The translations under genes and the position numbers were made by a program. From a virus, in IMG/VR virus record IMGVR_UViG_3300026097_000009, positions 90,862 through 154,861 of that record: 64,000 bases of DNA; one strand, 5' to 3'. Below the pieces are notes generated by a model. The model was not told the origin of the DNA. It worked only from the letters and a program-made list of their open reading frames with translations, and ran no database searches. Shown piece after piece: positions 10,401-58,426 of the stretch. Within the stretch, counting starts at the first letter, position 1; every line of letters starts with the position of its first letter.

Positions 10401-10835
10401 GATGAAATTATCTATCATCCAGTAACATATAAAGTTTTATTTGGATCTAAAGCTGAGCCTAATTTTCAGGCACAATTTAAAGTAGTTAAGAATCCAAATA
10501 GAAACATAAATGACAACAATTTAAAAGTTAGAATTATAAGTGCTATCGACGAATTTTTTGATATTAACAATTGGGATTTTGGTGATAGATTTTATATAGG
10601 AGAATTGATAACCTATATAACAACAACTGTTGCTCCGGACATTAGCAATATGGTTATTGTTCCTCGACAGTCTAATCAAACATTTGGCACTCTATTTGAA
10701 GTACAAAGTTTAAATGATGAAATTTTTGTTAGCGGAGCAACTGTGGACGATATAGAAATTGTAGAAGCTATAACACCTTTTGAAATTTCAAGATCAACAG
10801 GATCAACAACCAATACCGGAGGCACCAGTAACTAA
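7422..10835 (+). CDS. Baseplate wedge protein (gp6 / baseplate J-like)
   Basis: DFENLR...DFNDYIESS...LIDLLA...LAYNAKR; ESIASIQQNAP...QNRMVTAEDY motif. Confidence 0.9.
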   Translation: MTTSVRQNNLLVNQDWTRIYQTFKNADFKSYDFENLRRVMINYLRENYPEDFNDYIESSEYMALIDLLAFLGQSLSFRLDLASRENFIELAERKDNVLRIARSLAYNAKRNIPATGLLKFDTVSTTESVLDSSGRNLANQTIVWNDPSNSNWAEQFIAVVNSTMVANTEYGRSQGNATIEGIETDQYRFNTFSNDVPIYAFNKSVAGRSMVFEVVSTAFTGEEFIYEEDPEPGNQPGFVYRNDGKGPGSSNTGFYMLFKQGSLELADFTIEEPTTNEVVAVDSTGINDADVWLYSLNGAGIQTNQWTKVPSLSGNNIAYNSIANNIRNIYSVITKDKDRVDLVFADGNYGNLPQGPFRLYYRVSNGLNYVIRPTEMTGINLTIPYVNSSGDAHTLTVGLSLKFTVDNASATESIASIQQNAPATYYTQNRMVTAEDYNLAPLATSQNILKVRAVNRISSGISRNFDLIDSTGRYSGVNVFADDGYIYKEDTETILNFKAQNRFDAINFIRDSIEPIFSSNSVYNFYITKFPKILFTDLTTEWVEITNEINQNTGYFINNVDQTVLKTGVYTTNTLKYLSVGSLIKFVAPSGYYFDKNNNLVQGTASLSTDKTYIWTKVASLVGDGTNAGRGVLSNGLGPVTFTDRVPSEAIASRIVASFSNNIQTGLENEMVNLISNGVNFGIRYDYESGEWKIIDKDNLNLNDRFALGKAGDTTNNNLDSSWLVSFVKVADTYKVTVRQVDYRFGSVKQNRFAIEENRKIYDPNTGLTVFDQIKVLGINTDFAQIDPLKQDKVFFVDSAIQEPDGYKKPDEVNVAFADSDDDGVIDNPDSFVEIAGDDSELKFLFFIKDTTTQFDTYNYFDNSDETIILVNREVDADINNYTDGQLIYFYDIDEDVVKQVNRTTNTFDIQPNYKANYGRDNLKFQYIHNAGNDRRIDPSASNLIDVYLLPKNYDTEFRNFLKGAVSTVPVAPTSDELRIAYGSTLNQIKTVSDEIIYHPVTYKVLFGSKAEPNFQAQFKVVKNPNRNINDNNLKVRIISAIDEFFDINNWDFGDRFYIGELITYITTTVAPDISNMVIVPRQSNQTFGTLFEVQSLNDEIFVSGATVDDIEIVEAITPFEISRSTGSTTNTGGTSN

Positions 10836-19800: not shown

Positions 19801-22800
19801 TAAAAAAATTACTCCTAACTTGACTACTAGGTCAATAAGTTCGTTCGATGTTAAAACTTACATTGAAAATCCAGCAGCCGCACAAATTCCGTTTGTTGCA
19901 TTAATAGATGAAGACAAATTTATTTTATATAATTACGAAACAGTTTTAAGAAATAATGAGACATATATTAACTTCTTAAACAAAGATAGTGAAATTGTAA
20001 ACCCTGTTCACAAAGAATATCAACTATTAACTGAAGGAAATATAGAAAAAGAATTAAGCGAAGACTTAGAGTTGAAATGGATTGATAGTCTAATAGGCTA
20101 TGATTTAAATGCAAACAAAGTTCCCGATCCAAATCTTCCAGAAAGACAAAAATATGGTATCGGTTTTAGACCTAGACAGGGTATGTTTGTCGATAATAGA
20201 GAAGCTTTAAAAATCGTCGTCAACAGAATAAATCTTATTTTAAGTTCTCAACCTTATGTTGAAACATTAGATTTAACTGATTTCTTTGATAGTCAAGAAA
20301 TTCCAAATTCTACGTTAAACTTATACGATACATCCGTAGAAAATTTTGCTGACCTAGACAACGTCGGAGCTATAAGATTAACTTCTGCTTCTTTGCAAGC
20401 CAACATTGTGAATGGTGAAATTGATACTGTTGATATAATAAATCCCGGATTTGGGTACCGAGTACCGCCAACTGTTGAAGTAATCGGAAACGGTGAAAAT
20501 GCAGAAATTACCACAGTTATTAATTCTATAGGCCAAGTAACAGCAGTTAATGTTGTTAATGCAGGAAGAAAATATACAACTGTCGATCTCAAAATAAGAG
20601 CATTTTCTGTTCTTGTAGAGAGTGACGAAACTTCAAACAATTTTTGGAGTGTATATGAATATGACGAAAATAGAAATACTTTTTATAGAAGTATAACTCA
20701 AGATTATGATGTATCTCGTTATTGGGATTATGTAAATTGGTGGCAGGACGGATACGGCCCAGATTCTAAAGTTTCGTTCGAAATCGAAAACTTTAGTTTA
20801 ATTCCTACATTAAATTTAACGTCCGGTAATCTTATAAGAATCAAAGAATACGGCACAGGCGGTTGGGTTGTTCTAGAAAAGAATGAATCTAATACAGGCG
20901 ATATTGGAACAGATTTTAATATAGTAGGTAGACAAGACGGAACTATTTCTTTAAAATCGAGCTTATATGACGATACTGCATTCGGACTAGGGTTCGACAG
21001 CATAGATTCTTTTGATACAACTAAGTATGATAAAGAACCGTATTTAGAAACAAGAAAACTATTGTATGCAATTAAAAATAATATCTTTGTAAATGAACTT
21101 GCCACTGAATGGAACAAGCTGTTTTTTGCAAGTATTAAATATGCATTTACAGAACAAGAATATGTTGATTGGGCGTTCAAAACAAGTTTTGTTAATGTTA
21201 AACATACTGTTGGGGATCTTGATCAGCCTACAAATTATCGTCCAGATGGATTAGACAGTTATCTAAGTTACCTAGAAGAAGTAAAGCCTTTTAGAACATC
21301 AATACGAGAATTTATTAGTAGCTATAATGAAATTGAAGATACTCCTACTATAACCACTGACTTTGATTTGCCTCCTTACTATAACACTAATGCAGGAAAG
21401 GTGTTAAGCGTAAATCAATATGATTCTAATCTCCAGAATTATCCGTGGAAATATTGGTCCGATAATCAAGGGTATGCTATAACCGAAATTGAAATAGCCA
21501 ATGCAGGTAGTGGTTATACAAATCCTCCAAGCGTAGTTATTACTGGCACTGGCTCCGGCGCATCCGCTAGAGCTTTTATTAGAAACGGTTCAGTAAGTAG
21601 AATACAGATTATTAATAAAGGCTACGGATACACTTCTAACACAGTAGTGTCGTTGGTTGGAGGTAATGGTAGTAATCCTGATAATGCAAAAGCAGTTCCT
21701 ATACTTGGCGATAATTTAATTAGAAACATCGATACAAAAATTAAATTTGATCGTATTTCTAAAAATCCTCTATACTCAACACTTACTAAAGAAGAGTCGT
21801 TTATTGCAACAGGAAATACATCTGTATTCACATTAAGTTACGCTCCTACTCGTAATAAAAATGATATTGTAGTTTATAGGAATAATCAAATATTATTAAA
21901 CAGTGATTACTCTATAACACTCTTTACTCAGTATAACAATCAATATACACAGTTAAAAGGAAGGTTAACTCTAACAGAAGTTCCTGATGCTAATGATGTT
22001 ATTACAGTAATGTATAATATTAACAATGAATTACTAGATTCAGTAGCAAGAATTAACAAATTCTACAGTCCATTGGCAGGAATGAAAGGTAAAGAATTAA
22101 ATCAACTAATGACAGGTATAGATTTCGGCGGTGTGCAAATCCAAGGAAATACATTCGATGTTACTGGAGGATGGGATGCATTACCTTGGTTTACTGATAA
22201 TTGGGATTCAGTAGAGAGTAATACTGATTTCTATGTAGTCGCCGATGGTAGTACCACATCTGTAACATTACCGTATACCCCAGAGTCTGGCGAAATCATA
22301 ACGGTTTATTTGAAACGGTCGGGGTCTGATTTAGTTCAAACAATCGATGATTTGCAATATTCAGATGTTCCAGATGAACCTAAAACTGTTCGTATAGATG
22401 ATCCTTATTTTGATCAGTATGACGGAACTACAGTACAACCGAACGGAAGAACTACTGCTCCGGATAGTGCGTTGATGCCTTCTTTTATTGGAGACGGTAG
22501 CACAAAGACTGTTGAAATAGGGTCATACGTAAGAACCTATGAAAATGATATTTTAGTCTTTAGAAAGTTAGAAAGTGATGGTACTGTAACAATTGAAGAT
22601 GAAAACATTGTAGATACAAACCTATCCGGAGGTAATTTAAATTTTGCAGGAGGCGCATACAGCACCGCTAATGGAACAACTGCTGAAGAGATAGTAATAG
22701 AAGGTGGAAAATTTATATCTCCTGAACAATCAACAGGCCCCGAAGAAAATCTTCCGGGACAAGTTTTAGAAAGTCTTAGTTTTAAAGTATTCACTAAAAA

Positions 22801-44589: not shown

Positions 44590-44871
44590 TCAATACCACC
44601 CCATTGCTCTACCAAAACCGAATATGTTAACAATTGCAAAGTAGAAAGTTAACAGCATGATCCATGCCGCACCTCTACGCCAACTTGCGTAAACCTGTGT
44701 AATTGCACCAATAAAGAAATTAGGATAAACAAATCTCATATCGGGATCGTCGGCATTTATTGCGAGATACAAACTTGCAATAACTGTAAAAACAAAACTA
44801 ACAAGTTCAAATCCAAATGCTACACGATCTGATTGATAACTGTTGATCCAAAAATCTTTAACAGTTTGCAT
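44590..44871 (-). CDS. Small three-helix membrane protein
   Basis: Three hydrophobic segments; TGATG coupling to queE gives the start MQTVKDF at 44871. Confidence 0.7.
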   Translation of the reverse strand: MQTVKDFWINSYQSDRVAFGFELVSFVFTVIASLYLAINADDPDMRFVYPNFFIGAITQVYASWRRGAAWIMLLTFYFAIVNIFGFGRAMGWY

Positions 44872-45719
44872 CAAGTGCCCCACTCATTCTTAAACAACGG
44901 CACTTGTAGTCTATCTGAATACCTAACACCGTTTGCCATAGCAAGTTCCGCTACACGGCGGTTGTTAAGCTCGTAGACACCTTCTGTGCCACCTACAGGC
45001 ATCAAATACACAGGCCCTGTAAACCCTTCCGCACGATAAATGTCTGCGGCTTCTAGTGCTTCCTCTGCATCTTCTTCTGTAGCAACTACAAACTTCAAAT
45101 ATGTATAACCCGCTTCTTCATACTCGCATACGATATCAGGGCGAATAGCTTCACTGGAATCTTCACCACTACAACTAAGTTTAGCACTTACTGAAAATGT
45201 AACTTCTCTATCATCTCGCTGTGCCGTCCACGACCTCAAATACCGTTTAAAGTCTGCGTGTAACTTCTGGGTACCATTTGTTTCAAATGTAATCTCTTTA
45301 AGCAGTTGCATACTTTCGTTATCCAGTAAGTCAGGATATGCTCTCTGCCATCCTAACAACGGCTCACCGCCTGTGATTACAAGATGCTCATCTTCCCAGC
45401 CATCCCCTGGCAACAATTCACAGATGCGATCAGCAATGCCATCTGTTTCCATCATAGGTGAAAGATGTTTAAATCTTGGATCCCACGAAGCATAACTGTC
45501 ACAGCCTGTTGCCACAATAGGCAACTCTTCATATGTGCTATACTTGTCAATGTCTTTTGCGATAACGTCGTGTGCTGTGCTAGATTCGCCTTTAGGCATA
45601 TTAAAGCCACTACAGGTAAAGTTACACCCGAATGTACGCAAGAAAATACTAGGCACGCCCATATAGCGGCCTTCGCCTTGAATGCTGTAAAACAGCTCTG
45701 CTATTTTAATTTTGCTCAT
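44871..45719 (-). CDS. queE: 7-carboxy-7-deazaguanine synthase (radical SAM)
   Basis: ELFYSIQGEG..G.PSIFLRTFGCN, VITGGEPL, FETNGT, SVSAKL, KFVV, YLMPVG and RLQV motifs. Confidence 0.9.
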   Translation of the reverse strand: MSKIKIAELFYSIQGEGRYMGVPSIFLRTFGCNFTCSGFNMPKGESSTAHDVIAKDIDKYSTYEELPIVATGCDSYASWDPRFKHLSPMMETDGIADRICELLPGDGWEDEHLVITGGEPLLGWQRAYPDLLDNESMQLLKEITFETNGTQKLHADFKRYLRSWTAQRDDREVTFSVSAKLSCSGEDSSEAIRPDIVCEYEEAGYTYLKFVVATEEDAEEALEAADIYRAEGFTGPVYLMPVGGTEGVYELNNRRVAELAMANGVRYSDRLQVPLFKNEWGT

Positions 45720-45907
45720 TGTTCTATATTACTATCTTTATCTTTCTTTGTCAAGGTAATATTACCGTTGTCGTCCTTACCCCACAACAATGTGTCACCT
45801 TCAGTCCAACCCATTTTTTCCAACATCTCGTCCGGAAATTGAAGAATTAAATCCTTAGTATCTGGATCTTCTACGAGTTCAACTTTCCATTGATTTTTCA
45901 TCATCAT
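45716..45907 (-). CDS. AbrB/MazE-like small DNA-binding protein
   Basis: LILQFPDEMLEKMGWTEGDTL motif. Confidence 0.7.
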   Translation of the reverse strand: MMMKNQWKVELVEDPDTKDLILQFPDEMLEKMGWTEGDTLLWGKDDNGNITLTKKDKDSNIEQ

Positions 45908-46721
45908 CTCCTAGTATGTACGGAATATATTTTTCAGCAATCAATTTATGATATTCTGTATTATAGTGTTCCGTATCTTCTAATAAATAATCAAGATGAT
46001 TTACACCATTTTGCAAAAAATATTCGCTTGCTGAAATCTTATTAAAATTTCCCTTTATTTTTCCATAATAATTTATATCAAAATCATAATATGTTTCTGG
46101 CTTCATTTTAAATAGATGAAGATTTACATTTCTTTCTCTACACATATTGTCAATGGTATACAACCACATCATTTGATCTTGTTTTTCTAACCAAGTGTTT
46201 AATTCAAAAAACAGTTTGATTTTCCAAAATTTTTCTTTCCATATATCAGGCTGAGATATGCCATCATCCATTGACACTCCTATTCCTGGAAATTTATCCC
46301 AATCTTCAGGGGAAGGCTTAAAGAATGCTTGAACTACATCTTCATATAGAGTATAATCCATCATTCTTATAAAGTATTCATCTCGATGAATCACTTTTGA
46401 CAGATAATCACAATCGATTAAATCAGTCCTAAAACTATCAAATGCAATTACAATTCTACTGGGGTATGTAAGTTGAATCACTATGTCTTGTAGATTTTCA
46501 AATTTATCTAAAACATTTTTTGCCCAATTTACAAAAACTCTATTAGAAGCCCCTCCCATTGCATAAACTGCTCCGGGGGTTTTAGTTGTATCTAAAAAAT
46601 GTTCAGCATAATTGTTATCGTTCCACATAGTGCCGCCCTTTTCAGGGTCTAAATCGCCGATGTAACCGTTTGTGTGACTATCACCAATAAAAGCAATTTT
46701 TACCTCAGCATCCGTCGCCAT
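45879..46721 (-). CDS. SGNH/GDSL-hydrolase-like protein
   Basis: IAFIGDSH, GGASN and C-terminal DTEH (DxxH) motifs. Confidence 0.6.
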   Translation of the reverse strand: MATDAEVKIAFIGDSHTNGYIGDLDPEKGGTMWNDNNYAEHFLDTTKTPGAVYAMGGASNRVFVNWAKNVLDKFENLQDIVIQLTYPSRIVIAFDSFRTDLIDCDYLSKVIHRDEYFIRMMDYTLYEDVVQAFFKPSPEDWDKFPGIGVSMDDGISQPDIWKEKFWKIKLFFELNTWLEKQDQMMWLYTIDNMCRERNVNLHLFKMKPETYYDFDINYYGKIKGNFNKISASEYFLQNGVNHLDYLLEDTEHYNTEYHKLIAEKYIPYILGDDDEKSMES

Positions 46722-47094
46722 ATATCACATCCCCTATTTCATCTGTGTTTACTTGATCCTTTTTGTAGTTGCCCTTCTCGGGGATAACGTGTCGAACACC
46801 GCCTCGTGGATCCTTCATATCGCCTGCCCTTCGTGGAATAAGATGAACGTGTGGATACATAACAGTCTGTCCAGCACTTTCGCCGTGATTAACTCCAACA
46901 TTAAATCCATCGCAATACCCTGCGAGAACAAGTTCCTGGCCGTGCTTGTATGCTTCTACAAGACATTTTCCGACAAGTTCAAACTCGTCTTCTCGAGGAA
47001 CAAACAATAAATGTCCTTCTGTTACAGGATATCCGTCATTGTAAACTGTAAAATCGTCTTCTTCCCAAACTACATCAGTCCAAGGTCCGTTCAT
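46705..47094 (-). CDS. HIT-family nucleotide hydrolase
   Basis: PVTEGHLLFVP..FNVGVNHG..AGQTV..HVHLIPR; the first triad His is replaced (YPHVH). Start is ATGA-coupled at 47094. Confidence 0.9.
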   Translation of the reverse strand: MNGPWTDVVWEEDDFTVYNDGYPVTEGHLLFVPREDEFELVGKCLVEAYKHGQELVLAGYCDGFNVGVNHGESAGQTVMYPHVHLIPRRAGDMKDPRGGVRHVIPEKGNYKKDQVNTDEIGDVIYGDGC

Positions 47095-47591
47095 TGTCCT
47101 ACATTCTCCCAGGGATATACAAGCCAAACGTCTTCTTCGGCTTTGTTAACTTCGTGTGTGTAATAGTTTACACCGTCAAACTCTGAACTTAGGTTTTCTG
47201 TGATAACAGCAAAGCGAACATTATCGCCCCATACAGTTTCCGCACCGTTGTATACACTGCTGTGCCAATCCTGTTTGATCCAGTTGAATGTAGCCCCAGT
47301 GTCGTTAATGTCATCCACGATGAGAATTTTTTTCTGTGCAGTCTCGTCACTGCCAAATGCATCTTCAGCCATCCAGCAGTTTGTTTCACACTGATCACCG
47401 TCTCTTAGACTTATTTTAAGGGCCTCTCCGCGGATTCCTAGCATATTGCTTAGTATGGTAGCAGGGACATTGCCACCGCGTGTAATACCTACAATGTAGT
47501 CAGGACGCCACGCATCTTTGTACATTTGTAGTGCGATGTTTACGCAGGCTGTCTCTACATCCTGCCAACTATAATAATGTTTCTTAATCAT
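47091..47591 (-). CDS. Type I purine phosphoribosyltransferase (Gpt-like)
   Basis: IVGITRGG, PRPP loop LIVDDINDTGAT and WLVYPWE. Confidence 0.9.
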   Translation of the reverse strand: MIKKHYYSWQDVETACVNIALQMYKDAWRPDYIVGITRGGNVPATILSNMLGIRGEALKISLRDGDQCETNCWMAEDAFGSDETAQKKILIVDDINDTGATFNWIKQDWHSSVYNGAETVWGDNVRFAVITENLSSEFDGVNYYTHEVNKAEEDVWLVYPWENVGQ

Positions 47592-47799
47592 TTTCTTTCC
47601 TTGCTTTTACTTTAGGATGAATTGTTTTATCATTATAAATATCTCCTGCTAGAGCTTGAATCTGATCTACAAGGTGATCTACATACTCTGCGTTATAAGA
47701 TTCGCCCGCGGCAACTCGATATTTTTCTCGATGTGCTAAGACAGCAAGACCGTGCATAGCACTTACTTTGTCCATTAACTGTTGTATGGTGTGTTGCAT
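47584..47799 (-). CDS. Hypothetical protein
   Basis: 71 aa; TAATG-coupled to the upstream gene. Confidence 0.7.
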   Translation of the reverse strand: MQHTIQQLMDKVSAMHGLAVLAHREKYRVAAGESYNAEYVDHLVDQIQALAGDIYNDKTIHPKVKARKEND

Positions 47800-48227
47800 T
47801 ACACACTTCCTTCATATTTGTCTTTTAAATATGTATGATTGTCTACCCATTCACCTTCGCGGACGAATCCCCACTCTCTTAGTTTAGGACCTGGAATAAA
47901 GAGTGTCCAAGTATCAACGCCAGGCACAAGCTCAATGCGATGGAGACTCTTAGGACTACATATTCTAAAATGCCCAGGGGCTCTCCAGAACCGTCCTTTT
48001 GGAGTAGTTTCCCAGTAACCCCCACGCAAAATAAGAGCGAAATAAGGCCAAGGGTGATCGTGTAAGTCATCTAAGTCTCCTTTGTGAAAGTTGTGTAAAA
48101 AGACATTAAACGGAAACCATTTACGATCTTTTAAAAATAAGTAGTAGCGAGTTAGGTAAGGCTCATTAGCATAGCGATCCATAATAATTCGCTTTCGGCC
48201 TAATTTTTCAAGTGCTTTTAGGATCAT
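47799..48227 (-). CDS. Cupin-like protein
   Basis: LHDHPW..LILRGGYWE..HRIEL..WTLF cupin motifs. Confidence 0.7.
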   Translation of the reverse strand: MILKALEKLGRKRIIMDRYANEPYLTRYYLFLKDRKWFPFNVFLHNFHKGDLDDLHDHPWPYFALILRGGYWETTPKGRFWRAPGHFRICSPKSLHRIELVPGVDTWTLFIPGPKLREWGFVREGEWVDNHTYLKDKYEGSV

Positions 48228-48429
48228 TGTTTGTCCTCTTGTGTGCTTTGTGCATATTTGCCCATTCTTTGCGTCTATCTTTCTTGCTCTGAACGTTTTC
48301 TATATCAATCAGTTCACTTAAATGAAAGTCCGGGTGTTCGGCATAAAATTTTTCACAGGCTTTGATGTGATTTTCAGCCTTGATCTTTTTACGCTTGCGT
48401 CCCTTGGTGTAAAAAATAAAAGTGTCCAT
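48208..48429 (-). CDS. Hypothetical basic protein
   Basis: Start reassigned to MDTFIF (ATG at 48429, TAATG-coupled). Confidence 0.6.
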   Translation of the reverse strand: MDTFIFYTKGRKRKKIKAENHIKACEKFYAEHPDFHLSELIDIENVQSKKDRRKEWANMHKAHKRTNNDPKST

Positions 48430-48602
48430 TAGTCTAAATCCTTGTACTCTACTACAACACCATTCTCTCCCCAAATTTTAGCTTGTTTTTCTGCTTCTTC
48501 TCTTGAGTCGTGTAAAACAATTTCAAGCCCATCGGGACCTTCTTTCGTCACAAATATCCAATCATCGTCCGGCATTGGAACTTTTACTGCATATTTAGGC
48601 AC
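48429..48602 (-). CDS. Small hypothetical protein (57 aa, not in ORF track)
   Basis: GTG start: MPKYAVKVPMPDDDWIFVTKEGPDGLEIVLHDSREEAEKQAKIWGENGVVVEYKDLD. Fills the gap exactly and overlaps both neighbours. Confidence 0.65.
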   Translation of the reverse strand: MPKYAVKVPMPDDDWIFVTKEGPDGLEIVLHDSREEAEKQAKIWGENGVVVEYKDLD

Positions 48603-48987
48603 AGAGTTCTTCCTTGATATATCTTTTTAGTTCTTTATCTTCTACATCTGCTGGGATATCATTTTGATAAAAGATTCTGTAACTGTCTGAACCGTATTTT
48701 CCAATACCGCACAGATCCAAAGCATCTTTCTTGTCCCAGTTAATATATTGTAAACTCATTTTCCAGATACGTCTAGCTCTTACATTTTGCATACCGAGCG
48801 GTTCTAATTGTTCTGCGATTTCGTCTACAGTGGCATACAGCAACAGTCCTGCCGTAGGCCAACGCTCAAAAAATTCTGTGAGCACAGGCTTTGTTTGCCG
48901 TCTGTCAACTTGGTTAAGGCAAATGACACCAACCATGTGTTGCCATTCGCACTCAACTTGCTGTTGTACCATTAGTTCGTCTTTCAT
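48595..48987 (-). CDS. MBD4-like HhH DNA glycosylase
   Basis: WQHMVGVICLNQ..LEPLGM..RA..LCGIGKYGSDSYRIF..EDKELKRY, matching the MBD4 catalytic-domain pattern. Confidence 0.85.
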   Translation of the reverse strand: MKDELMVQQQVECEWQHMVGVICLNQVDRRQTKPVLTEFFERWPTAGLLLYATVDEIAEQLEPLGMQNVRARRIWKMSLQYINWDKKDALDLCGIGKYGSDSYRIFYQNDIPADVEDKELKRYIKEELCA

Positions 48988-49587
48988 TTAAATTTCTGCC
49001 TTACAATTAAATGCAATTGTGATTCTTTCACGCTCGCCTTTATGTTCATTTACGCCGTGTTCAAAGTAACTAGGAAAAATATAAAGCCTGCCTGTTTTAG
49101 TTTCGCATTGCATCGATTTTGCAGTATATTGATTTTCACCGGTTTTGTAATGCCAGGGCCAGTTTGAATCTTTGTTTTTGTCTAAGAATTCAATCGGACT
49201 GCTATCTTCGTCTGACTGAACATAAAAAACCCCACTCCATAAATTAGGAAGATGGTTGTGAGATCCATGCCAGCTATTTTTTTCTCCAACAGTAGCCCAG
49301 CTATCGGAAATATAAACTTTTCCTTTAAGTTGAACTGTGTTATGAACTGTCTGCACCATATCAACAATAAAATTTTTAATTTTTTCTAGCTCTTCATGAT
49401 CTAAGAAATTTTGCAGAGTGCGGTATGTTGTAAACCCGTGACCTTTATAGTTTCCGTCATTTACTTCTTTATATAACAAAATACGTTCGATAATCTCTTT
49501 TTGAATTTCGTCGGGCAAGTCAAAATCGCACCAGAAAAGCCCGGCAGGAAAGCAATCATGCCTAAACAATTCTAGTTTGTCTGTCAT
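48988..49587 (-). CDS. Putative 2OG-Fe(II) oxygenase (HxH...H type)
   Basis: HGSHNH..WSGVFYV..LYIFPSYFEHGV..RITIAFN. Start reassigned to MTDKLE (49587). Confidence 0.8.
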   Translation of the reverse strand: MTDKLELFRHDCFPAGLFWCDFDLPDEIQKEIIERILLYKEVNDGNYKGHGFTTYRTLQNFLDHEELEKIKNFIVDMVQTVHNTVQLKGKVYISDSWATVGEKNSWHGSHNHLPNLWSGVFYVQSDEDSSPIEFLDKNKDSNWPWHYKTGENQYTAKSMQCETKTGRLYIFPSYFEHGVNEHKGERERITIAFNCKAEI

Positions 49588-49685
49588 AGTAAAAAGTCCT
49601 GCACAAATCCTAGTACTCCTAATGCTAGAGCACAAACTAATAAACCTTTTGCCATATTAACAGCAACAATATCTAAATCATTCAT
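49584..49685 (-). CDS. 33-aa hydrophobic peptide (not in ORF track)
   Basis: MNDLDIVAVNMAKGLLVCALALGVLGFVQDFLL; ATGA overlaps with both folE and the oxygenase gene. Confidence 0.6.
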   Translation of the reverse strand: MNDLDIVAVNMAKGLLVCALALGVLGFVQDFLL

Positions 49686-50380
49686 CGTGGTGCAAACTCC
49701 TGTTGTAGTTTGATATTGTCAAAAAACTCTTTCTTTGTTCCTGCGTCATCTTTAAACGCACCTTTCAGCACAGTTGTCTGTGTAAGACTGCTATGTGCCA
49801 TAATGCCACGATTTTCGCAACAACCATGCACCGCCTGGACATACACACCTACGTTTTCGCTACCAGTAGCTCGCATAATTTCACGAGCAATGTCATTACA
49901 CAGTTCTTCTTGTAGTGTGCCACGTCGAGCACACCACTGTGCAATGCGAGTATACTTAGATAATCCAATCAGTGTATCTGCGGCAATAATACCAATATAT
50001 GCTACACCTGTAACAGGCTGGTGATGATGACTACACATGCTTTTAAGTTCGCTTCGAACCACAAGCATGCCTTCATATTTTTCATTGGTAATGTCATCTG
50101 GCTCGTTAGGGAATGCTGTAGCATCCGGACGATAGTCATAGCGTCCTGCCATGATCTCATTAAAGTACATCTTAGCCAGTCGACGTGCTGTACCTTTTGA
50201 GTTAGGATCTGTGTGTCGATCGATGATCAGTGTGTCTAGTACAGTTTCAAATGCTTCTGTAGCTTCGTCGATCAATTGTTCTTTGTCGCCGCTTTGTAGC
50301 AAGCGAGCAATGTTGTCGCCAGCCCAGTAACGCTTGTCTGCATTTTTACAGCGTTCGATAATTTCTTCGTATTTCTTCAT
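49682..50380 (-). CDS. folE: GTP cyclohydrolase I
   Basis: TARRLAKMY, SMCSHH, GLSKYTRI, RRGTLQEEL and HGCCENRGI motifs. Confidence 0.92.
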   Translation of the reverse strand: MKKYEEIIERCKNADKRYWAGDNIARLLQSGDKEQLIDEATEAFETVLDTLIIDRHTDPNSKGTARRLAKMYFNEIMAGRYDYRPDATAFPNEPDDITNEKYEGMLVVRSELKSMCSHHHQPVTGVAYIGIIAADTLIGLSKYTRIAQWCARRGTLQEELCNDIAREIMRATGSENVGVYVQAVHGCCENRGIMAHSSLTQTTVLKGAFKDDAGTKKEFFDNIKLQQEFAPR

Positions 50381-50415
50381 TGTTTCTCCGAGTTAATGCG
50401 GTGGATCGCACATGT

Positions 50416-51507
50416 TTATTTTAAATTATTTAGAAGGTTTTCGCAACTGAAATAATTTTTCTTAAGTATATCTACCTGTTTATTTAGGCTAGGAAGATAA
50501 GAATCATAATTTTCTACATAGTCTTGAACACGAGCAACAACCTTGTCTCTGTTTGCTTTATAAGCCGCAAAGTCCTCTGTCCATTCTGAAGGGTATTTAA
50601 AATCGTCCACAGCCATTTCTGTATAGCTTAATCTATCAGGAACCATAGGAATAGTATCTACTAATGCTCCTTCGTACCAACTAATACCCAATGTTTCTTG
50701 TAAGTTAGCTGAGAACACAAGTTTAGCACGACCTAGCAAGTTGTGATATTCATTCTTTGTAAGTTGTTGATCCTGACAAACTACAAATTCGTATTGTGGA
50801 AGCTGTTCTTTTAAATCACGGAATATATCAACTTGTTTTTCAGGAGCGATACGATGCGGGAACAACACAATATCTTCCTTGGGCATGCCTTTATACAGTG
50901 TGAACATATCATCCATGTATTCCATAGGCCAGCCTGTTTTTACAATTCTTCCGTTTTCTTTTAAGGCAGTTATTGTTTGATTCGCCCATGGCATATTTTC
51001 ATTGCTTGCAAAAACCATAGTGTCTGCAAACATGTTAATATGAAAGTTAGTAGCAAAGTAGTTGTGATGCGCGGCAGCAAAAAACGATTTTTCAGCATGT
51101 CTTACCCACGGAGCATCTCCAATCAGTCTGCCTAAAAAGTCTTGAGGATCATAACTACCAGCATGCCACAATGCGTGAATTCTTACGCCAATGCCAAGTA
51201 GCTCTGCCATATAACGTAAGTTAATAATGCCAGGATGCCAAGCATCAGTAAAAATAAAATGATCGCCGCTGGCAACGTCCCCGGCTGTGAATAGTCTAGA
51301 GATCTTTTCAACCTGCGAAGCTTTGTAGATATTAGTACCACCAAAGTTAAGAAACGCACCTGGAGTAGTAGCAGATGGTATGTCAGTTGGACCTTCAATA
51401 ACTTCAACATCAAACCCTTTATTACGAAGCAGTACAGGCAAGTGGGTTTTCCACTCGCCTGTGTATCTTGTTTCTACTGCCTCAATGTCAACAATAAAAA
51501 CTTTCAT
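50416..51507 (-). CDS. GT-B fold (GT4-like) glycosyltransferase
   Basis: FPHRIAPEKQ and ETLGISWYE (E-x7-E) donor-binding motifs. Confidence 0.8.
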   Translation of the reverse strand: MKVFIVDIEAVETRYTGEWKTHLPVLLRNKGFDVEVIEGPTDIPSATTPGAFLNFGGTNIYKASQVEKISRLFTAGDVASGDHFIFTDAWHPGIINLRYMAELLGIGVRIHALWHAGSYDPQDFLGRLIGDAPWVRHAEKSFFAAAHHNYFATNFHINMFADTMVFASNENMPWANQTITALKENGRIVKTGWPMEYMDDMFTLYKGMPKEDIVLFPHRIAPEKQVDIFRDLKEQLPQYEFVVCQDQQLTKNEYHNLLGRAKLVFSANLQETLGISWYEGALVDTIPMVPDRLSYTEMAVDDFKYPSEWTEDFAAYKANRDKVVARVQDYVENYDSYLPSLNKQVDILKKNYFSCENLLNNLK

Positions 51508-51713
51508 CGTCTATTGTAGTTATTATTGTTGTGCTTGTGTTTGCTAACATTTGGACGCTTTTTAAAACCGTTCTTATAGTTTAAGAAAGCCCTCCAATTC
51601 CAATTGCTCTTTTTATAAAGATGAGCAGGGTTAAACTCACGAAGTTCCCACCGACAAAAATGGTGGTACTCTTCAAGATCGTTGAAGATTTTTTCAACTT
51701 GTTGTTTCATCAT
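51504..51713 (-). CDS. Hypothetical protein
   Basis: 69 aa with an AAGGA SD; ATGA overlap with the GT gene. Confidence 0.7.
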   Translation of the reverse strand: MMKQQVEKIFNDLEEYHHFCRWELREFNPAHLYKKSNWNWRAFLNYKNGFKKRPNVSKHKHNNNNYNRR

Positions 51714-51722
51714 AATTCCTTA

Positions 51723-52127
51723 TTAATATTTGATGAATGATCCATTTTCTCCGTCTTCGGAGACCTCAATCCAAACCTCACGGCCTGGGTATTGCTCTAC
51801 AATTTGCTGATGTAATTCATCAGAAATCATTTCGCAACTCTTGTGATTCAGTTCCAATATGGAAGTTGAATGGTCAACTTCTTCATAGAGACGTTGCAAC
51901 CAACGCTTGAACTGAATAAACTCAATGTCTCGATCGTCGTGAAACACTTCGATCCAAACTTTAAACTTGAAAATGTGTCTGTGTAGATAACCAAGGAAAC
52001 TTACATCGTCCCAATCACCTGTTGCCAGTTTGGGATCAGTGTCTGCACCTGGATAGTAATGAACTCCTTCCTTGTCGAAAGTCACCCAAATCATTTTCTT
52101 AGGACGAGTGTCTTGTTTAATAATCAT
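51723..52127 (-). CDS. QueD-like T-fold protein of the LxxxHRHxF type (DpdL-like, proposed CDG decarboxylase)
   Basis: LGYLHRHIF replaces the QueD CxxxHGH; SCEMI and VSEDGENG align with QueD C-terminal motifs; sits in the folE/queE/dpdA context. Confidence 0.7.
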   Translation of the reverse strand: MIIKQDTRPKKMIWVTFDKEGVHYYPGADTDPKLATGDWDDVSFLGYLHRHIFKFKVWIEVFHDDRDIEFIQFKRWLQRLYEEVDHSTSILELNHKSCEMISDELHQQIVEQYPGREVWIEVSEDGENGSFIKY

Positions 52128-52720
52128 AAGCCTTCAAATAAATTCCTTCTGGTAGTTTTAGTTCTTGATAGTGATTCAAATTCTTTCATAGCTTTATTGC
52201 TGATTCTATATCTATATGATCCTTCACTAACATAACCGTCTAGTACAGCGGTTTTACAATCGCTGGTGATATTTTTTCGTGTGTCGCCGTTTAGAATTTT
52301 ATCTCGAAGATTGTCGTATGCCTTTTCTAATTGTTCTTGTATTTCTGGCAAATCTAAATCGATACAAGTAGCGCCAACTACTTCATCAAAATCCGCATCC
52401 CATTCTACAGTATTTCGATTAAGTGTCTTTTTATAATATCTGGTTTTGTACCAGTTTTTTGTATTTTTGATATCTTTCACAGTCATTGATCCGGTGTTAT
52501 GAGCGGCTTTGCTACCACGCTTTCTTGTTTTATTTTCCACACCTTCAATTGGTAAATCAACATCGCCAAATTTATCAATGCTATATCCGTTTTCTAACAA
52601 TGTATCGTCGACCCACCTTCCTACATCACCGTCATTTTTAGGACTCGGAATTTGATCACCTACTTTTACATTGTTCTTGAGAGTTTTTACCCTATAAGTT
52701 TGTTTTTGGTATTCGGTCAT
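52124..52720 (-). CDS. Putative PD-(D/E)xK endonuclease
   Basis: GDVGRWVD...VDLPIEGVENKTRK spacing resembles type II restriction / MutH-like nucleases. Confidence 0.45.
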   Translation of the reverse strand: MTEYQKQTYRVKTLKNNVKVGDQIPSPKNDGDVGRWVDDTLLENGYSIDKFGDVDLPIEGVENKTRKRGSKAAHNTGSMTVKDIKNTKNWYKTRYYKKTLNRNTVEWDADFDEVVGATCIDLDLPEIQEQLEKAYDNLRDKILNGDTRKNITSDCKTAVLDGYVSEGSYRYRISNKAMKEFESLSRTKTTRRNLFEGL

Positions 52721-53435: not shown

Positions 53436-54986
53436 TTACTTCTCCTTAAGAGATTCCTCTAATCTATCAAGTTCTAGATCTTCACGATCATCTGTCCACG
53501 GCTCTTCTTCTTCGCCTTCGTCGTTGACTTCGACAAACATGCGATTATACTCATTTGTCACACCGCCACGCAAACGAGCACCTTCTAGATCTTTTAAGAA
53601 ACTGTCTGCTTCTTTGATCATTGCAAATGCAGATTCTTTAGAATCACAGTCAAACAGTTCTTCCACAAACCGATCAAAGTATAGAATGTTGCGTGGTACC
53701 CAATCTGAATACTCATCACTCTTGTCTGCTTGCTTGACTTTCTTCCACTGTCTCCAATCTGGCTGTGCTTTTGCACGTTCAATATCCATTAGATTGTTAG
53801 CACGTTGTACTGCTACAATATGGCAGTATACATTGTGATTCATCATAAGTGCGTATGCAAACGAATCCCACGATGTTTTACCTTCCTTGCCGATCTTGTT
53901 AAGCATACCGGGTGCATAGTGACAGATATCAGCAACGGTTAATCGTCTGCCAATTTCTGACTCGAACGGGAATGGAATATCGTGTCGTTCTGCAAGTGCC
54001 TTGTTATCCGGAGCTTTGTCCATAATAACCGCCCAACGCTTTGCACTGTGCTGTGCATTAGTGTATACCAGTCCATGTGCTGTTGCAATAAACGGAGAAG
54101 CACAATCGAAACTGATAGTGAAGTTTTCATTCACATGCTTGCGAACTTGACGCTGAATAGAAGTTAAGTAGCACGACCAATCAAGTTGTGCAGTACCTAG
54201 GAAGTGCATCCAATCCTTGCCTTCCAGCATGCCGTCGAACTTCATGGTGATCAATCTTCGCAGTGTAATAGGCATCTTGCACATATTAGCACCGCCCATT
54301 GCCCAACCTTCGCAGGCCTTATCACCCCATACTGAAGGATCTGAAAACTCTTTAACACCTTCATACCACTCTTCCGCAGTTTCCCAATCCGAACCTTGCA
54401 AGACATTTAGGAACTTAGTTTGGCCTAATCTGCGCTCTAACCAGTATTTGTTGTTGAAGCGAGTCTTTTCCAAGCAATCTTCAAAACTCTTTAATCCAGT
54501 TTTCGGACTGTGAATATGATCGCATGCCCAAGTCGGAACATCAAGCGTCATTGACCAATCCGCCGTAAGTTCAAGCCAATTGAGGATTTTGTCACGAGTC
54601 TTGTTTGCTTCTGGGCCTTCAAAGTTTAACCAATCAAACTTGAGAATGCCTTTACCTACCTGATATCCGCCGGAGTCTCCTAAGATCATCGAAGTTGATC
54701 GATCTCTGTCGTGGATCATTGCATCTTGCACAAGACTTTTCTGTAAATCTAATTGTGCATGACCTGCAGAATACAACCCGTAGTCGTAAGTAAAATAGCC
54801 CTGTTCTTTGTTTAGAAAGTTCATGCCTTCAATACCACGATCAAACCCTTGAGGAATACGATCAGTGGGCACAAATTCTTCCTGCCTTTGCTTTGCAATG
54901 TATGTGCTAAAGAAACTGCTAATAGCAGGCAAATACACAGCATAGTCTTTCTGTAATGGTGTAAGATTTACTGGTGGATTCTTCAT
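53436..54986 (-). CDS. dpdA: TGT-fold DNA-guanine transglycosylase (DpdA-like)
   Basis: GDSGGYQ, MTLDVP, VLQG, AMGG, HFLG, SFDCAS and late HN motifs; clustered with folE and queE and coupled to the clamp gene. Confidence 0.8.
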   Translation of the reverse strand: MKNPPVNLTPLQKDYAVYLPAISSFFSTYIAKQRQEEFVPTDRIPQGFDRGIEGMNFLNKEQGYFTYDYGLYSAGHAQLDLQKSLVQDAMIHDRDRSTSMILGDSGGYQVGKGILKFDWLNFEGPEANKTRDKILNWLELTADWSMTLDVPTWACDHIHSPKTGLKSFEDCLEKTRFNNKYWLERRLGQTKFLNVLQGSDWETAEEWYEGVKEFSDPSVWGDKACEGWAMGGANMCKMPITLRRLITMKFDGMLEGKDWMHFLGTAQLDWSCYLTSIQRQVRKHVNENFTISFDCASPFIATAHGLVYTNAQHSAKRWAVIMDKAPDNKALAERHDIPFPFESEIGRRLTVADICHYAPGMLNKIGKEGKTSWDSFAYALMMNHNVYCHIVAVQRANNLMDIERAKAQPDWRQWKKVKQADKSDEYSDWVPRNILYFDRFVEELFDCDSKESAFAMIKEADSFLKDLEGARLRGGVTNEYNRMFVEVNDEGEEEEPWTDDREDLELDRLEESLKEK

Positions 54987-55720
54987 GATGCCTGCGCTGG
55001 AATAATGTATTTGTAGTTTGCCAATCCTGAATCTAGTGTGATCTGGATTGCACCTTCGTTTGATAAACTCATTTTTGTGTTGTTTACATCAGCAATTTTA
55101 AGAATTGCAAGAATTTGTGATACAGGCCAAGCCCATCCTTTATCCATTTTGCCATCTACGCCCATTGCAAATACAAATTCGCCGCCGTGTGTGCTTGCAT
55201 CTCCAAACACAAACTTTAAGTTGCCGTCTTCTGTTTTAGCAACAAACGTAGGATGTTCAGAGTTTGCACCTGCCTGGAAGTTAAAACGCTGTACTGCCGC
55301 AACACTAGGCTCGATTTCTACATCCCAGTTTACACCACGGAACTTCACAGTCTTCATCTTTTCGTTGATGATTTCTTGATTCATAAAGCGATAATCGTTT
55401 TTAAAATCACCTGCCGCATTTTCGAAGTGAATCCCAACAGGAATGTCAACACCGTTGCGTTCTGCATTTTTGATTGTGATCTTTGCGTCTTCTTTGTACT
55501 CAGCACCGTCTAGCAGATACTTCAGCTTTTGCAGTGCAGGCATACCGAACACACCCATCATATCCGGGTAAGTGTTGTGTGTTTCTGCTTCCATAATGAC
55601 AGAACGATCGTCTGCCATAGAGTTGAACACAGTCTTGTCTTCCGAACCTGTGACCTTTACGGTTGTAAGGAAACCAAGATTCTGTGTGTGATTTACAATG
55701 TCTTGTAAGATGTCTTTCAT
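54983..55720 (-). CDS. Sliding clamp (T4 gp45-like)
   Basis: 245-aa alpha/beta protein directly downstream of the DNA polymerase; ends in clamp-like strands (GAIQITLDSGLANYKYIIPA). Confidence 0.7.
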   Translation of the reverse strand: MKDILQDIVNHTQNLGFLTTVKVTGSEDKTVFNSMADDRSVIMEAETHNTYPDMMGVFGMPALQKLKYLLDGAEYKEDAKITIKNAERNGVDIPVGIHFENAAGDFKNDYRFMNQEIINEKMKTVKFRGVNWDVEIEPSVAAVQRFNFQAGANSEHPTFVAKTEDGNLKFVFGDASTHGGEFVFAMGVDGKMDKGWAWPVSQILAILKIADVNNTKMSLSNEGAIQITLDSGLANYKYIIPAQAS

Positions 55721-55741
55721 TTATTTTCTCCGTATAATGAT

Positions 55742-55770
55742 AGTATATAGGTTTGTTTAGTCAAAGTCAA
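55742..55770 (-). promoter_or_regulatory. Sigma70-type promoter for the clamp-dpdA operon
   Basis: TTGACT-N17-TATACT followed by a GGAG SD and the ATG at 55720. Confidence 0.75.
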
Positions 55771-58426
55771 ATAATTTGTTGAATGTGTTATCGCTTCGAG
55801 TAGAAGAAATATCCCAATCCAACACTCCGATAAGGTTTTTTAGTTTTTCGTCAATCACTGTTGTTTCCATTGCGGAATCGTCGAACGGCAACTCTTTAAA
55901 CCAATCCGGTAATCTCAGCTCATCCACTGGATAAGCCACTGAAGTGAAGCTCATTGGATTATCCTTGAGCTTGCACACAATTACCTTTGCACCGTCTGTA
56001 ATGCTCATAGAATACTTGTCATCGTTCATACGCTTGAGCGTATTCCAGTTGATCGAGGCACGAACGTGTCCAGGCATATTAGTCTTGCCCGCTTTCTTTT
56101 CTTTTGCCTTGTATTCTGTGATTTTGTTTGCTCGCTTGGGCGAACCTTTTTCCCAACCCGGGCGAGCTTTAAAGTCTGTGCGGAATGCTGTGATATATTC
56201 AAGACAGTCTTCTTTGCTGTATCCTTCTAGTACCATAAGCAGTACGTTTGTAAGGAATTCCTGAATTGCTACTGGTGTATCTGAACGCTTGAGATCAAGC
56301 CCCATAGGTTTCATCTTTCCAGACTTGCCGTCTACGTCTAAACGCTTGCCTTCATTGTCGTATACAAGAGCCGCATAGCGTTTTTTAGTAATGAACAGAC
56401 CTTTTGATGCTACAATCTCGCGACCTGCTTTGATTACTTCTCCGCGTGTCTTAGGACAGTGAAACGCATCTTGCATAAACTTAGGGAATGTATCACTGGC
56501 AGAGTCGCCTATTGTGTCATACAGTTCAATCACTGAATCTTTGGTCCACGGTACTGATCCGTTTTCAATATCATCTCTCAGCGTAGTGTATGCAGAAAAA
56601 TAACAAGAGTCTGTATCACCATAGATAATTGCTTTACCTACGTGATCATATTCGCCTGTGATAATCTCGTTGATCTTACCAGCCATGTGTTTTGTGATCT
56701 GCCTACCAGTTAGTGTGGTACTTTGACCGATCCTGTTATCAAAGAAACGACATCCTGCGTTTAGGATTGCACCGTATAACGAGTTCAAGTTAATCTTTTT
56801 AACCAATTGTCGTTTGTCCCAATATTCAGTTTCAATATCATTGCCCGCACCGATAGCTTCTTTTAGTTTTTTCTGCATGTCTTTGCGTTCTGCATACCAA
56901 CGCTTTAGCAGTCCGGGAATAATACCTTCTTTCTCATAGGTAAAGATTGTGCCATTTGCACTTAACACCCACGGCTGATTAGAGTTAAAGATAAGTTCAT
57001 AGATCTGTGCGGCACTTAGCGTGTCACTGCCGCCTTCTTCCCAATCGATAGTAATTTCTCTGCCAACTTCTTGCTCCATAACCGCAGTGTATTCTAAACT
57101 ACCAAATACTCCTTCCCAAGCACCGGCAAAACTTTTACCTTTACCCATCTGTGCTTCAAGGAATGCTTTTGTTCCGTCTTGACGCAGTTGTCCTACAATA
57201 GTCTCTGGACCCATATTAAGGGCACGAATCACTGACGGATACAGTGAGTTGATATCCACACTTCCGATCCATTCATGAATGCCTTTTTTAGGAAATGCAA
57301 CATATGCTCCGGCGGCCGCTGTGTTTTCTAGTTGATCTCGTCTAATTCTGTTTGGGACGACAAACCCTCGACGATGTGCTTCATTGATAATTGCCTGCTC
57401 CGTCACCGCAACAGCACCCATTGTGGTTTGGATTAACACAGTGTTTTCGTGTGCAATTGTGTTTGCAAGATCAATAAACTTCAGCTTCTTGTCTAGCTTG
57501 TCTAACAGTGCGGTATCCTGTCTGTTATATTCAATGAACGTTTTGAAGTCGTTGTTATATAACTGATCCAGTGTGCCTTCATAGACAGTTTTGTTTTCGC
57601 CAATCTCCATTTCACCGATGGCATCCAGTCGATAGGTATGGCGTTCTTCATAGGTATACTTTCTGTAAAGTTCTAAGCTGTCAACGTGTACCCTACCAAT
57701 AAGATCGTAAGTCACACTCATCTTACCGAACTTTTCAAACTCACGTTTTTTAGGAAGTTGATTCCACAAACAGAAACGACGAGTGTCTTCCTTGGAAAGA
57801 ACCTTAATCACACGGTTCACTGTATAGGGAATATCAAAACCTTCTGAGTTCCAACCACTTAACACATCGGCATCTTCGATGATATCCAAAAATGTATCTA
57901 GCATTTTTCGTTCGCTGTCAAACAACATCATGTTGTCGAAGTCTTTGGTTGCTTCCTCAGCTTCCGCCATACTCATAGTCTTCGGTGGAATGGCAAGACA
58001 GATAAGACTGTCCATCCACTGCAAATGTATAGCAATCGAAGTGATCGGCATAAATGCATCTTCTGGAGATGCATAGCCACGTTCTGGATCAAAATCAACC
58101 TCGATATCGAAGAATGCCACGTTCAGTTTAGGTGCATCTGCATTTAGATAGTTGTCTTCTAAACAGCGATAGATCGGATTAATATCACTTTCGTATTGTT
58201 TTTTATTGGAATGAATTTTTAATTCTTTGTGTAGCTCTTTGAGGTTCTTACAGGAAACTCTGCTTACAGGGTTGCCATAAATTGATTGGTACTTGCCTGA
58301 AGGATCATCATAGTAAAAGATGTGACGTGCAGGGTATTCTTTGTATTGTCGTTTCCCGTTGCTGTCTCTTTCAACAACGTGAATGACATCCTGATCTCGA
58401 TCGTAATATGCGTCGACGTAGCTCAT
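55757..58426 (-). CDS. Family B DNA polymerase (T4 gp43-like)
   Basis: Exonuclease motifs FFDIEV, GWNSEGFDIPY and YNRQD; polymerase motifs DINSLYPS, KINLNSLYG, YGDTDS and KKRY. Confidence 0.97.
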   Translation of the reverse strand: MSYVDAYYDRDQDVIHVVERDSNGKRQYKEYPARHIFYYDDPSGKYQSIYGNPVSRVSCKNLKELHKELKIHSNKKQYESDINPIYRCLEDNYLNADAPKLNVAFFDIEVDFDPERGYASPEDAFMPITSIAIHLQWMDSLICLAIPPKTMSMAEAEEATKDFDNMMLFDSERKMLDTFLDIIEDADVLSGWNSEGFDIPYTVNRVIKVLSKEDTRRFCLWNQLPKKREFEKFGKMSVTYDLIGRVHVDSLELYRKYTYEERHTYRLDAIGEMEIGENKTVYEGTLDQLYNNDFKTFIEYNRQDTALLDKLDKKLKFIDLANTIAHENTVLIQTTMGAVAVTEQAIINEAHRRGFVVPNRIRRDQLENTAAAGAYVAFPKKGIHEWIGSVDINSLYPSVIRALNMGPETIVGQLRQDGTKAFLEAQMGKGKSFAGAWEGVFGSLEYTAVMEQEVGREITIDWEEGGSDTLSAAQIYELIFNSNQPWVLSANGTIFTYEKEGIIPGLLKRWYAERKDMQKKLKEAIGAGNDIETEYWDKRQLVKKINLNSLYGAILNAGCRFFDNRIGQSTTLTGRQITKHMAGKINEIITGEYDHVGKAIIYGDTDSCYFSAYTTLRDDIENGSVPWTKDSVIELYDTIGDSASDTFPKFMQDAFHCPKTRGEVIKAGREIVASKGLFITKKRYAALVYDNEGKRLDVDGKSGKMKPMGLDLKRSDTPVAIQEFLTNVLLMVLEGYSKEDCLEYITAFRTDFKARPGWEKGSPKRANKITEYKAKEKKAGKTNMPGHVRASINWNTLKRMNDDKYSMSITDGAKVIVCKLKDNPMSFTSVAYPVDELRLPDWFKELPFDDSAMETTVIDEKLKNLIGVLDWDISSTRSDNTFNKLFDFD

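Follow-up and report, generated by a model that had tools for sequence, protein, structure and literature searches.

The polymerase gp43 of phages T4 and RB69 contacts the sliding clamp gp45 through a hydrophobic-acidic C-terminus, and the RB69 clamp has been co-crystallised with the last 11 residues of the polymerase (PMC2988020). Two other T4 proteins, gp55 and gp33, possess a conserved hydrophobic-acidic epitope and a variable unstructured linker, and their epitope is interchangeable with the C-terminus of gp43 (PMC2988020). T4 α-glucosyltransferase also binds gp45 (Sommer et al., 2004, cited in PMC13216743); PMC13216743 confirms the pull-down, and the enzyme has been proposed to act concomitantly with replication. 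A clamp-bound DNA-modifying enzyme of a phage already has a precedent as a general idea. The present work concerns a window of 64,000 nucleotides (positions 90,862 to 154,861 of IMG/VR virus record IMGVR_UViG_3300026097_000009) in which the genes for a T4-type DNA polymerase, a predicted sliding clamp and a 516-residue protein of predicted TGT fold follow one another, and in which the 516-residue protein carries a tail peptide resembling the C-terminus of the polymerase. In eukaryotes, DNMT1 and UNG2 are DNA-modifying enzymes tethered to PCNA by PCNA-interacting peptide (PIP) boxes. The resemblance is one of concept, in that a DNA-modifying or base-excising enzyme would be brought to new DNA by a short, possibly internal clamp-binding peptide; motif consensus, enzymes and domain of life all differ, and we use the comparison as an analogy only.

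The second group of relevant systems is formed by the DpdA proteins (bDpdA, PDB 7UI4, and phage DpdA1–DpdA4; PMC6884629, PMC10516641, PMC10164549). Like these, the 516-residue protein has a predicted TGT-superfamily barrel with invariant aspartates in TGT-like motifs, and its gene lies among FolE and QueE-type genes, beside that of the polymerase. None of the DpdA papers retrieved by full-text search refers to a clamp. Attempts to reconstitute DpdA3 and DpdA4 heterologously in E. coli were unsuccessful, for which the authors consider a need for additional, unknown factors possible (PMC10516641).

We consider it probable that the locus represents clamp docking of a DNA base-exchange enzyme. The preliminary description had drawn the same picture and expected phage-DNA selectivity and dense substitution to follow from it; the tests support its reading in part. 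They show the predicted folds, the conservation of the motif, its location in the tail, its co-variation with the polymerase tail and synteny. By analogy with T4/RB69 gp43, gp55 and gp33 we infer that the clamp is the receptor of the tail peptide; DNA as the substrate and coupling of base exchange to the replication fork are inferred as well. In the proposed mechanism the 516-residue enzyme would most likely replace guanines of the phage DNA with a 7-deazaguanine base, which the neighbouring FolE and QueE-type genes would supply. The hydrophobic-acidic peptide in its tail would most likely dock in the client-binding site of the phage PCNA-like clamp. Loading of the clamp takes place at primer-template junctions of the phage, and the docked enzyme would therefore be placed on freshly replicated phage DNA and would modify it there. 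If true, the docking peptide, present on a large protein family, would offer a concrete mechanism for coupling base exchange to replication, and the T4 clamp tool-belt (polymerase, gp55, gp33, ligase and α-glucosyltransferase) would extend to a base-exchange enzyme.

The AlphaFold2 model of the 516-residue protein has a mean per-residue confidence (pLDDT) of 91.9 and is confident for residues 1–470. A Foldseek search matched it to the Z. mobilis TGT (E 3.5e-8). VIA-align superposed model residues 12–439 on 2ash_B (Z 20.2, 304 residues, root-mean-square deviation 4.5) and gave a Z of 19.4 with the ArcTGT 1j2b. On this predicted structure the protein is a (beta/alpha)8 barrel of the TGT superfamily. 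The relation was revealed only by folding; neither the family libraries (Pfam, PHROGs, NCBIfam, PADLOC) nor a search of Protein Data Bank (PDB) sequences gave a match. The Pfam TGT model PF01702 does not match the protein, has no six-frame match in the record at E values up to 10, and reaches E 0.0045 in only two of 77 family members. The homologues from which these 77 aligned sequences were drawn group into 877 clusters (50% identity), and over 7000 proteins score as family members at E 0.001 or better. The analysis marks the family as a clade within the TGT superfamily that goes unrecognised by the models applied from Pfam, PHROGs, NCBIfam and PADLOC.

Three residues, D104, D294 and H261, are conserved in all 77 aligned sequences, and D149 in 76. 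The aspartates D104, D149 and D294 lie within the motifs GDSGGYQ, LDVP and SFDCASP. In TGT and bDpdA the general acid/base, base-binding and nucleophile aspartates are invariant (D102/D156/D280 and D95/D130/D256; PMC10164549). Judged by motif resemblance and order, D104, D149 and D294 may be their equivalents. Unlike those enzymes, the 516-residue protein shows no structural zinc site; C-x-C-x2-C is absent, no cysteine column exceeds 58 of the 77 sequences, and the cysteines are scattered.

By sequence, the family was compared with three named DpdA subfamilies, bDpdA, DpdA1 and DpdA3. The PADLOC library, which holds bDpdA, gave no match to the protein at E values up to 10, and hhalign of the family against CAjan DpdA1 returned a probability of 1%. 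The comparison with the DpdA3 of phiST/phi19:2, a protein of 259 residues and thus about half as long, was weak (hhalign probability 65%, E 6e-5, 84 columns; hmmsearch E 0.01). These comparisons suggest that the family belongs to no named DpdA subfamily; the names DpdA5 and DpdA6 do not occur in the literature. The label 'DpdA-like', which the preliminary description had given to the protein, therefore holds for the TGT/DpdA-type fold and the gene context and not for family membership, since Pfam TGT, bDpdA and DpdA1 models or sequences do not match. In a tblastn search, a phiST-type DpdA3 matched no phages beyond those of Cellulophaga, Chryseobacterium and Bacillus, and the polymerase of phi19:2 is of DnaE type and so offers no comparable tail.

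As the preliminary description had pointed out, the polymerase of the window ends in DNTFNKLFDFD (full C-terminal end SDNTFNKLFDFD) and the 516-residue protein has TNEYNRMFVEV ahead of an acidic tail of 29 residues (NDEGEEEEPWTDDREDLELDRLEESLKEK). The two peptides share the pattern N-x-[FY]-N-[KR]-[LM]-F. It had named lack of conservation among orthologues, or burial in the TGT barrel, as findings that would speak against its reading, and neither is the case. In the model the pLDDT falls below 50 for residues 472–482, with block values of 41 for residues 471–480 and 59 for 481–490. Because the motif lies beyond the fold-matched residues 12–439 and in this segment of pLDDT 41–59, it is not buried; in the predicted structure it is outside the TGT barrel, in a flexible tail. 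Among the 120 nearest homologues (77–100% identity) the tail consensus is G-A-R-L-R-G-G-[VI]-T-N-x4-L-F-x-E. The linker G-A-R-L-R-G-G is invariant in these sequences and the motif residues L, F, N and E occur in 107, 116, 117 and 114 of them, while the four positions between T-N and L-F are variable (entropy 1.4–2.0 bits). Relatives carry NTFGSLFSF, NTFNNLFEE or NEFNNLFDW at the motif position. In loci L084–L092, L094 and L097 and in Vibrio phage 2.275.O the motif stands at the very C-terminus.

The acidic tail of the window protein contains a second conserved island. It persists down to about 45% identity, for example as FADINDEKLTELE in phage PA5oct, and is missing where the motif forms the extreme C-terminus; the polymerase and every other open reading frame (ORF) of the record also lack it. 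Some distant family members (P0311, P0313, P0322, P0350 and P0383) are without the L-F motif and share a tail of the form W-x-T-[DT]-DLEEF instead (NWATDDLEEF, DWATTDLEEF, WWNTDLEPF). This tail may serve for docking on a replisome of another kind. Single-protein scans of IMG/VR with P0311 and P0305 found no locus.

We compared polymerase and enzyme tails in 81 IMG/VR loci whose proteins are 66–87% identical to the 516-residue protein, and in further lineages at 31–45%. All complete polymerase C-termini read in the 81 loci conform, exactly or nearly so, to N-[TN]-F-x-x-L-F-[DST]-F-[DE]. Many of these loci have, at the motif position of the enzyme, a near-copy of the polymerase tail from the same contig. 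In L079 the two 9-mers are identical (NTFGSLFSF in both), and in L023 (NTFGKFFSF in the polymerase, NTFTKFFED in the enzyme) F-F replaces L-F in both proteins. Given in the same order, the pairs are NTFGKLFSF and NEFRNLFSF in L027, and NTFNNLFDF and NTFNNLFEE in L078. The likeness extends to six diverged lineages in which both proteins end alike, with pairs including HFDSLFGW and SFNSLFDV in PA5oct, NNTDLFDW and NNNDLFGW in Vibrio phage 2.275.O (both C-terminal), TTFDDLFDF and VVNNLFDF in the L084–L092 clade, VVNSMFSF and RHNLFDF in L094, and KAMKLFNY and KAKSLFEF in L097.

Such resemblances could arise by chance or from composition, in which case the motif of the window would be functionless. 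Disordered phage tails commonly contain asparagine, phenylalanine and acidic residues. Moreover, [LM]F occurs within the last nine residues of eight of the 137 proteins of the record (a PHROGs search of these eight, made to find other clamp clients, gave no informative names). The two peptides of the window, taken alone, make a weak case, the pattern having been defined after both had been seen. At the level of the protein family the likeness goes far beyond chance. Among 110 full-length representatives drawn from the 50%-identity clusters, 31 have [LM]F in the last nine residues, compared with 2.7% of nine-residue windows from the protein bodies (p 7e-23). We also built a nine-column matrix from polymerase tails only and applied a threshold of 10 bits. 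This score was reached by 14 of the 110 representative tails versus 0.2% of body or shuffled windows, and by 41 of 78 orthologues (53%) versus 11 of 1132 (1%) other ORFs of the same contigs; two of these 11 are polymerase fragments. On the enrichment and the matrix scores we reject chance similarity for the family. With the identical 9-mer of L079 and the double L-to-F change of L023 added, a chance origin of the resemblance in the window is highly improbable.

The partner that we favour for the tail is the product of the gene between those of the polymerase and the enzyme. The AlphaFold2 model of this 245-residue protein (pLDDT 91.1) matches PCNA along its whole length (Foldseek E 6e-11, TM 0.65–0.68), and by this predicted fold it is a PCNA-like sliding clamp, as had been proposed earlier. 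It has no Pfam or NCBIfam match, gp45 Pfam models found nothing in the record, and a profile of the clamp family found nothing meaningful among PDB sequences. The clamp is thus unlike T4 gp45 in lacking sequence similarity detectable with the gp45 models, and like it in being a two-domain protomer of the trimer type. The polymerase is of the RB69 type, with RB69 polymerase 1clq as its best solved relative (E 2.3e-58), which agrees with the T4-type assignment of the preliminary description. Further likenesses to the T4/RB69 clients of gp45 are the short hydrophobic-acidic peptide, the variable unstructured linker and the near-identity of the peptide in the polymerase and another client. The differences are that the client here would be a DNA base-exchange enzyme and not a polymerase or transcription factor, and that in the window an acidic helix comes after the peptide, which is internal.

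The order polymerase–clamp–TGT-like gene is conserved from 87% to 31% identity in essentially all loci. The clamp gene stands between the other two in 78 of the 81 loci, occupies the same place in PA5oct, Vibrio phage 2.275.O, L084–L094 and L097, and adjoins the TGT-like gene in every lineage where a clamp was found. The PA5oct homologue, EST35_0314 (L001:6930-7676; phmmer E 1e-50 to the window protein), is annotated as a 'structural protein' from mass-spectrometry evidence; this label is probably misleading, because the homologue in the window has a PCNA-like fold. In phage Phosso, an upstream 'virion structural protein' of 240 residues was considered as a clamp and rejected, there being no detectable clamp homology. 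In several relatives (PA5oct, L001:1623-6849; L086:1024-5096; L097:4955-9154) the polymerase gene is split and the clamp-type tail is retained on the C-terminal part; the interruption in PA5oct is annotated as a Hef-like homing endonuclease, and those in L086 and L097 may be alike.

The shared peptide might instead dock the polymerase and the TGT-like enzyme, and perhaps a 198-residue protein discussed below, on a partner other than the clamp, for instance the helicase-primase, the single-strand-binding protein or a replication-compartment scaffold. The observations here bear on a shared and co-varying peptide and not on its receptor, and the second conserved acidic helix is evidence of a further interaction surface in the same tail. 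Set against this, the receptor of the polymerase C-terminus in T4 and RB69 is the clamp (PMC2988020) and the polymerase here is of the RB69 type; moreover, the clamp gene alone lies consistently between the two motif-bearing genes and overlaps the TGT-like one. A non-clamp partner seems to us quite unlikely.

Several points weigh against docking of the enzyme on the clamp. The motif of the window is a degenerate copy, with Y in place of F, M in place of L and V-E in place of D-F, and scores below 5 bits on the polymerase-tail matrix, which also speaks for a chance resemblance in this one protein. Its position is internal, with 29 residues following it, whereas the cited epitopes of T4 gp43, gp55 and gp33 are C-terminal. 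A clamp loader was not found in the record, which is 44% complete, although a clamp-loader-type AAA+ protein of 306–330 residues is encoded by all five larger relatives tested. The co-variation of polymerase and enzyme tails is in part phylogenetic. It does gain support from a permutation of same-genome pairings over six lineages with the L-F columns excluded, in which the true pairing scored 73 versus 26 ± 19 (p 0.0056); this figure is indicative only, as anchors and representatives were chosen by hand. About half of the diverged representatives are without the motif. Finally, PMC13216743 judges that glucosylation levels in T4 are not determined chiefly by binding to gp45.

The last two points bear on a further possibility, namely that docking on the clamp is real and does not couple base exchange to the fork. 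The peptide would then raise the local concentration of the enzyme on DNA, or regulate access of the polymerase by competing for sites on the clamp, and the density of modification would be set by expression and catalytic rate. In T4, promoter swaps tie the ratio of alpha to beta glucosylation mainly to expression and enzymatic activity (PMC13216743). The fold can function without docking, as roughly half of the diverged members of the family have no such motif. Retention of the motif over wide divergence, and its tracking of the polymerase tail, argue on the other side for selection on the interaction. The failures to reconstitute DpdA3 and DpdA4 in E. coli (PMC10516641) point the same way, but concern other subfamilies and are suggestive at most. 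We think docking without coupling unlikely and retain fork-coupled docking on the clamp as the better explanation. With T4 α-glucosyltransferase the 516-residue protein would share the position of a phage DNA-hypermodification enzyme associated, here putatively, with the sliding clamp. The glucosyltransferase glucosylates 5-hydroxymethylcytosine already in DNA, the 516-residue enzyme would exchange a whole guanine base, and the folds differ; the passages of PMC13216743 consulted report no polymerase-tail-like peptide for the T4 enzyme.

The 198-residue ORF downstream may encode another client of the clamp. That it ends in a weaker look-alike of the polymerase tail, TRRNLFEGL, had been noted before, and the orthologues support the observation with tails such as STFQNLFAYDN, STFKDIFAYGN and STFTKHFEVL; MKALFEAAA also occurs. 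No family library tried matched this ORF, and a word-index search for homologues of the protein returned only itself. Orthologues are present in only five of the 81 related loci (among them L059:11557-12141, L077:11345-11929, L056:2794-3363 and L066:6908-7492), so the gene may be mobile. In a six-sequence alignment of the family there is a D...E-x-K pattern (DLPIEGVENKTRK / DIPEIGWEVKCRK) compatible with a PD-(D/E)xK nuclease and perhaps reminiscent of nucleases of the MutH/Sau3AI type. By its tails this is a third protein family with a polymerase-like C-terminus. In L044 an ORF of 193 residues (10236-10817, plus strand), downstream of the TGT-like gene, is a further candidate client; it contains NEFNSLFDV, which ends 17 residues before the C-terminus and scores 16.9 bits on the polymerase-tail matrix.

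We speculate that in this jumbo-phage group the clamp could serve as a tool-belt for the whole DNA-modification module. Both the activity of the TGT-like enzyme and its selectivity towards phage DNA would depend on the clamp, and the sporadically present 198-residue nuclease candidate, with the same tail, would scan clamp-marked DNA for unmodified guanine, the two forming a replication-coupled modification/restriction pair. We hold this extended scheme to be doubtful. If true, dependence on the clamp might also account for the failure to reconstitute certain other phage DpdA types in E. coli.

Table 1. Positions of the features discussed, numbered within the window.
Feature	Position	Strand	Basis
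Family-B DNA polymerase, RB69/T4 gp43 type, 889 residues	55757-58426	-	Pfam DNA_pol_B 4.6e-35; phrog_262 6e-198
C-terminal peptide DNTFNKLFDFD of the polymerase, presumed clamp-binding tail	55760-55792	-	consensus in relatives; analogy with T4/RB69 gp43
Sigma-70-like promoter match TTGACT-17-TATACT, 10/12, upstream of the clamp gene	55742-55770	-	consensus match only
Predicted sliding clamp, two-domain PCNA/gp45-like protomer, 245 residues	54983-55720	-	predicted fold
ATGA overlap, TGA of the clamp gene and ATG of the 516-residue ORF	54983-54986	-	sequence reading
TGT-fold DpdA-like transglycosylase (predicted), 516 residues, catalytic core about residues 12-439	53436-54986	-	predicted fold
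Linker LEGARLRGGV, residues 467-476	53559-53588	-	conserved in near relatives; low model confidence from residue 472
Polymerase-tail-like motif TNEYNRMFVEV, residues 477-487, candidate clamp-docking peptide	53526-53558	-	conservation and likeness to the polymerase
Acidic tail with second island W-x-DDRED-x-x-LD-x-LE, helix residues 501-514	53439-53525	-	pLDDT 71-74; conservation
198-residue nuclease candidate ending TRRNLFEGL, possible clamp client	52124-52720	-	orthologue tails, D...E-x-K pattern
GTP cyclohydrolase I (FolE), first step of 7-deazaguanine synthesis	49682-50380	-	Pfam GTP_cyclohydroI 1.3e-37
QueE-like radical SAM enzyme (7-carboxy-7-deazaguanine synthase)	44871-45719	-	phrog_2076 8.7e-54; weak Pfam Radical_SAM

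The genes for the polymerase, the clamp, the TGT-like protein, the 198-residue protein, FolE and the QueE-like enzyme form a tightly packed block on the minus strand (Table 1). The polymerase and clamp genes are separated by 36 nt. The overlap of the clamp stop codon with the start of the TGT-like gene, described earlier and found as stated, implies that these two genes are co-transcribed and probably translationally coupled. The promoter that they had been said to share is plausible and no more: one sigma-70-like match lies just upstream of the clamp gene, and shuffled sequence yields such matches as often as this region does. The 516-residue ORF is followed by genes for a DUF465 protein, a 170-residue ORF and the 198-residue ORF. 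Past the latter come a 134-residue protein, a 363-residue protein, FolE, a 2OG-Fe(II) oxygenase and an HhH-GPD glycosylase, and then a PRTase, a HIT protein and the QueE-like enzyme. The 134-residue protein belongs to phrog_17812 and the 363-residue protein has no family match; both are encoded within 44871-52127 on the minus strand.

The label of phrog_2076, 'QueE-like radical SAM domain', and the position of FolE and the QueE-like gene in one block with the TGT-like gene suggest a supply of 7-deazaguanine precursors. Pfam models for QueC and PTPS (QueD) had no match anywhere in the 155-kb, 44%-complete record. As in phages of the phiST type, the pathway may end at 7-carboxy-7-deazaguanine or one of its derivatives. 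Among the relatives, PA5oct encodes QueE and Vibrio phage 2.275.O encodes QueF, QueC and FolE. PA5oct, whose homologue is 43% identical to the 516-residue protein, has DNA that resists G-dependent restriction enzymes (PMC12191111). The gene context and this resistance together point to DNA as the probable substrate of the 516-residue enzyme.

The record is a single viral contig of 154,861 bp. Because it is rated 44% complete and close relatives reach 353 kb, we regard it as a fragment of a jumbo-phage genome. A megablast search of phage records with the 5-kb block gave no match. On the plus strand, the window carries a single ORF of 4650 residues (10835-24787), and two more ORFs of over 2000 residues lie elsewhere in the record.

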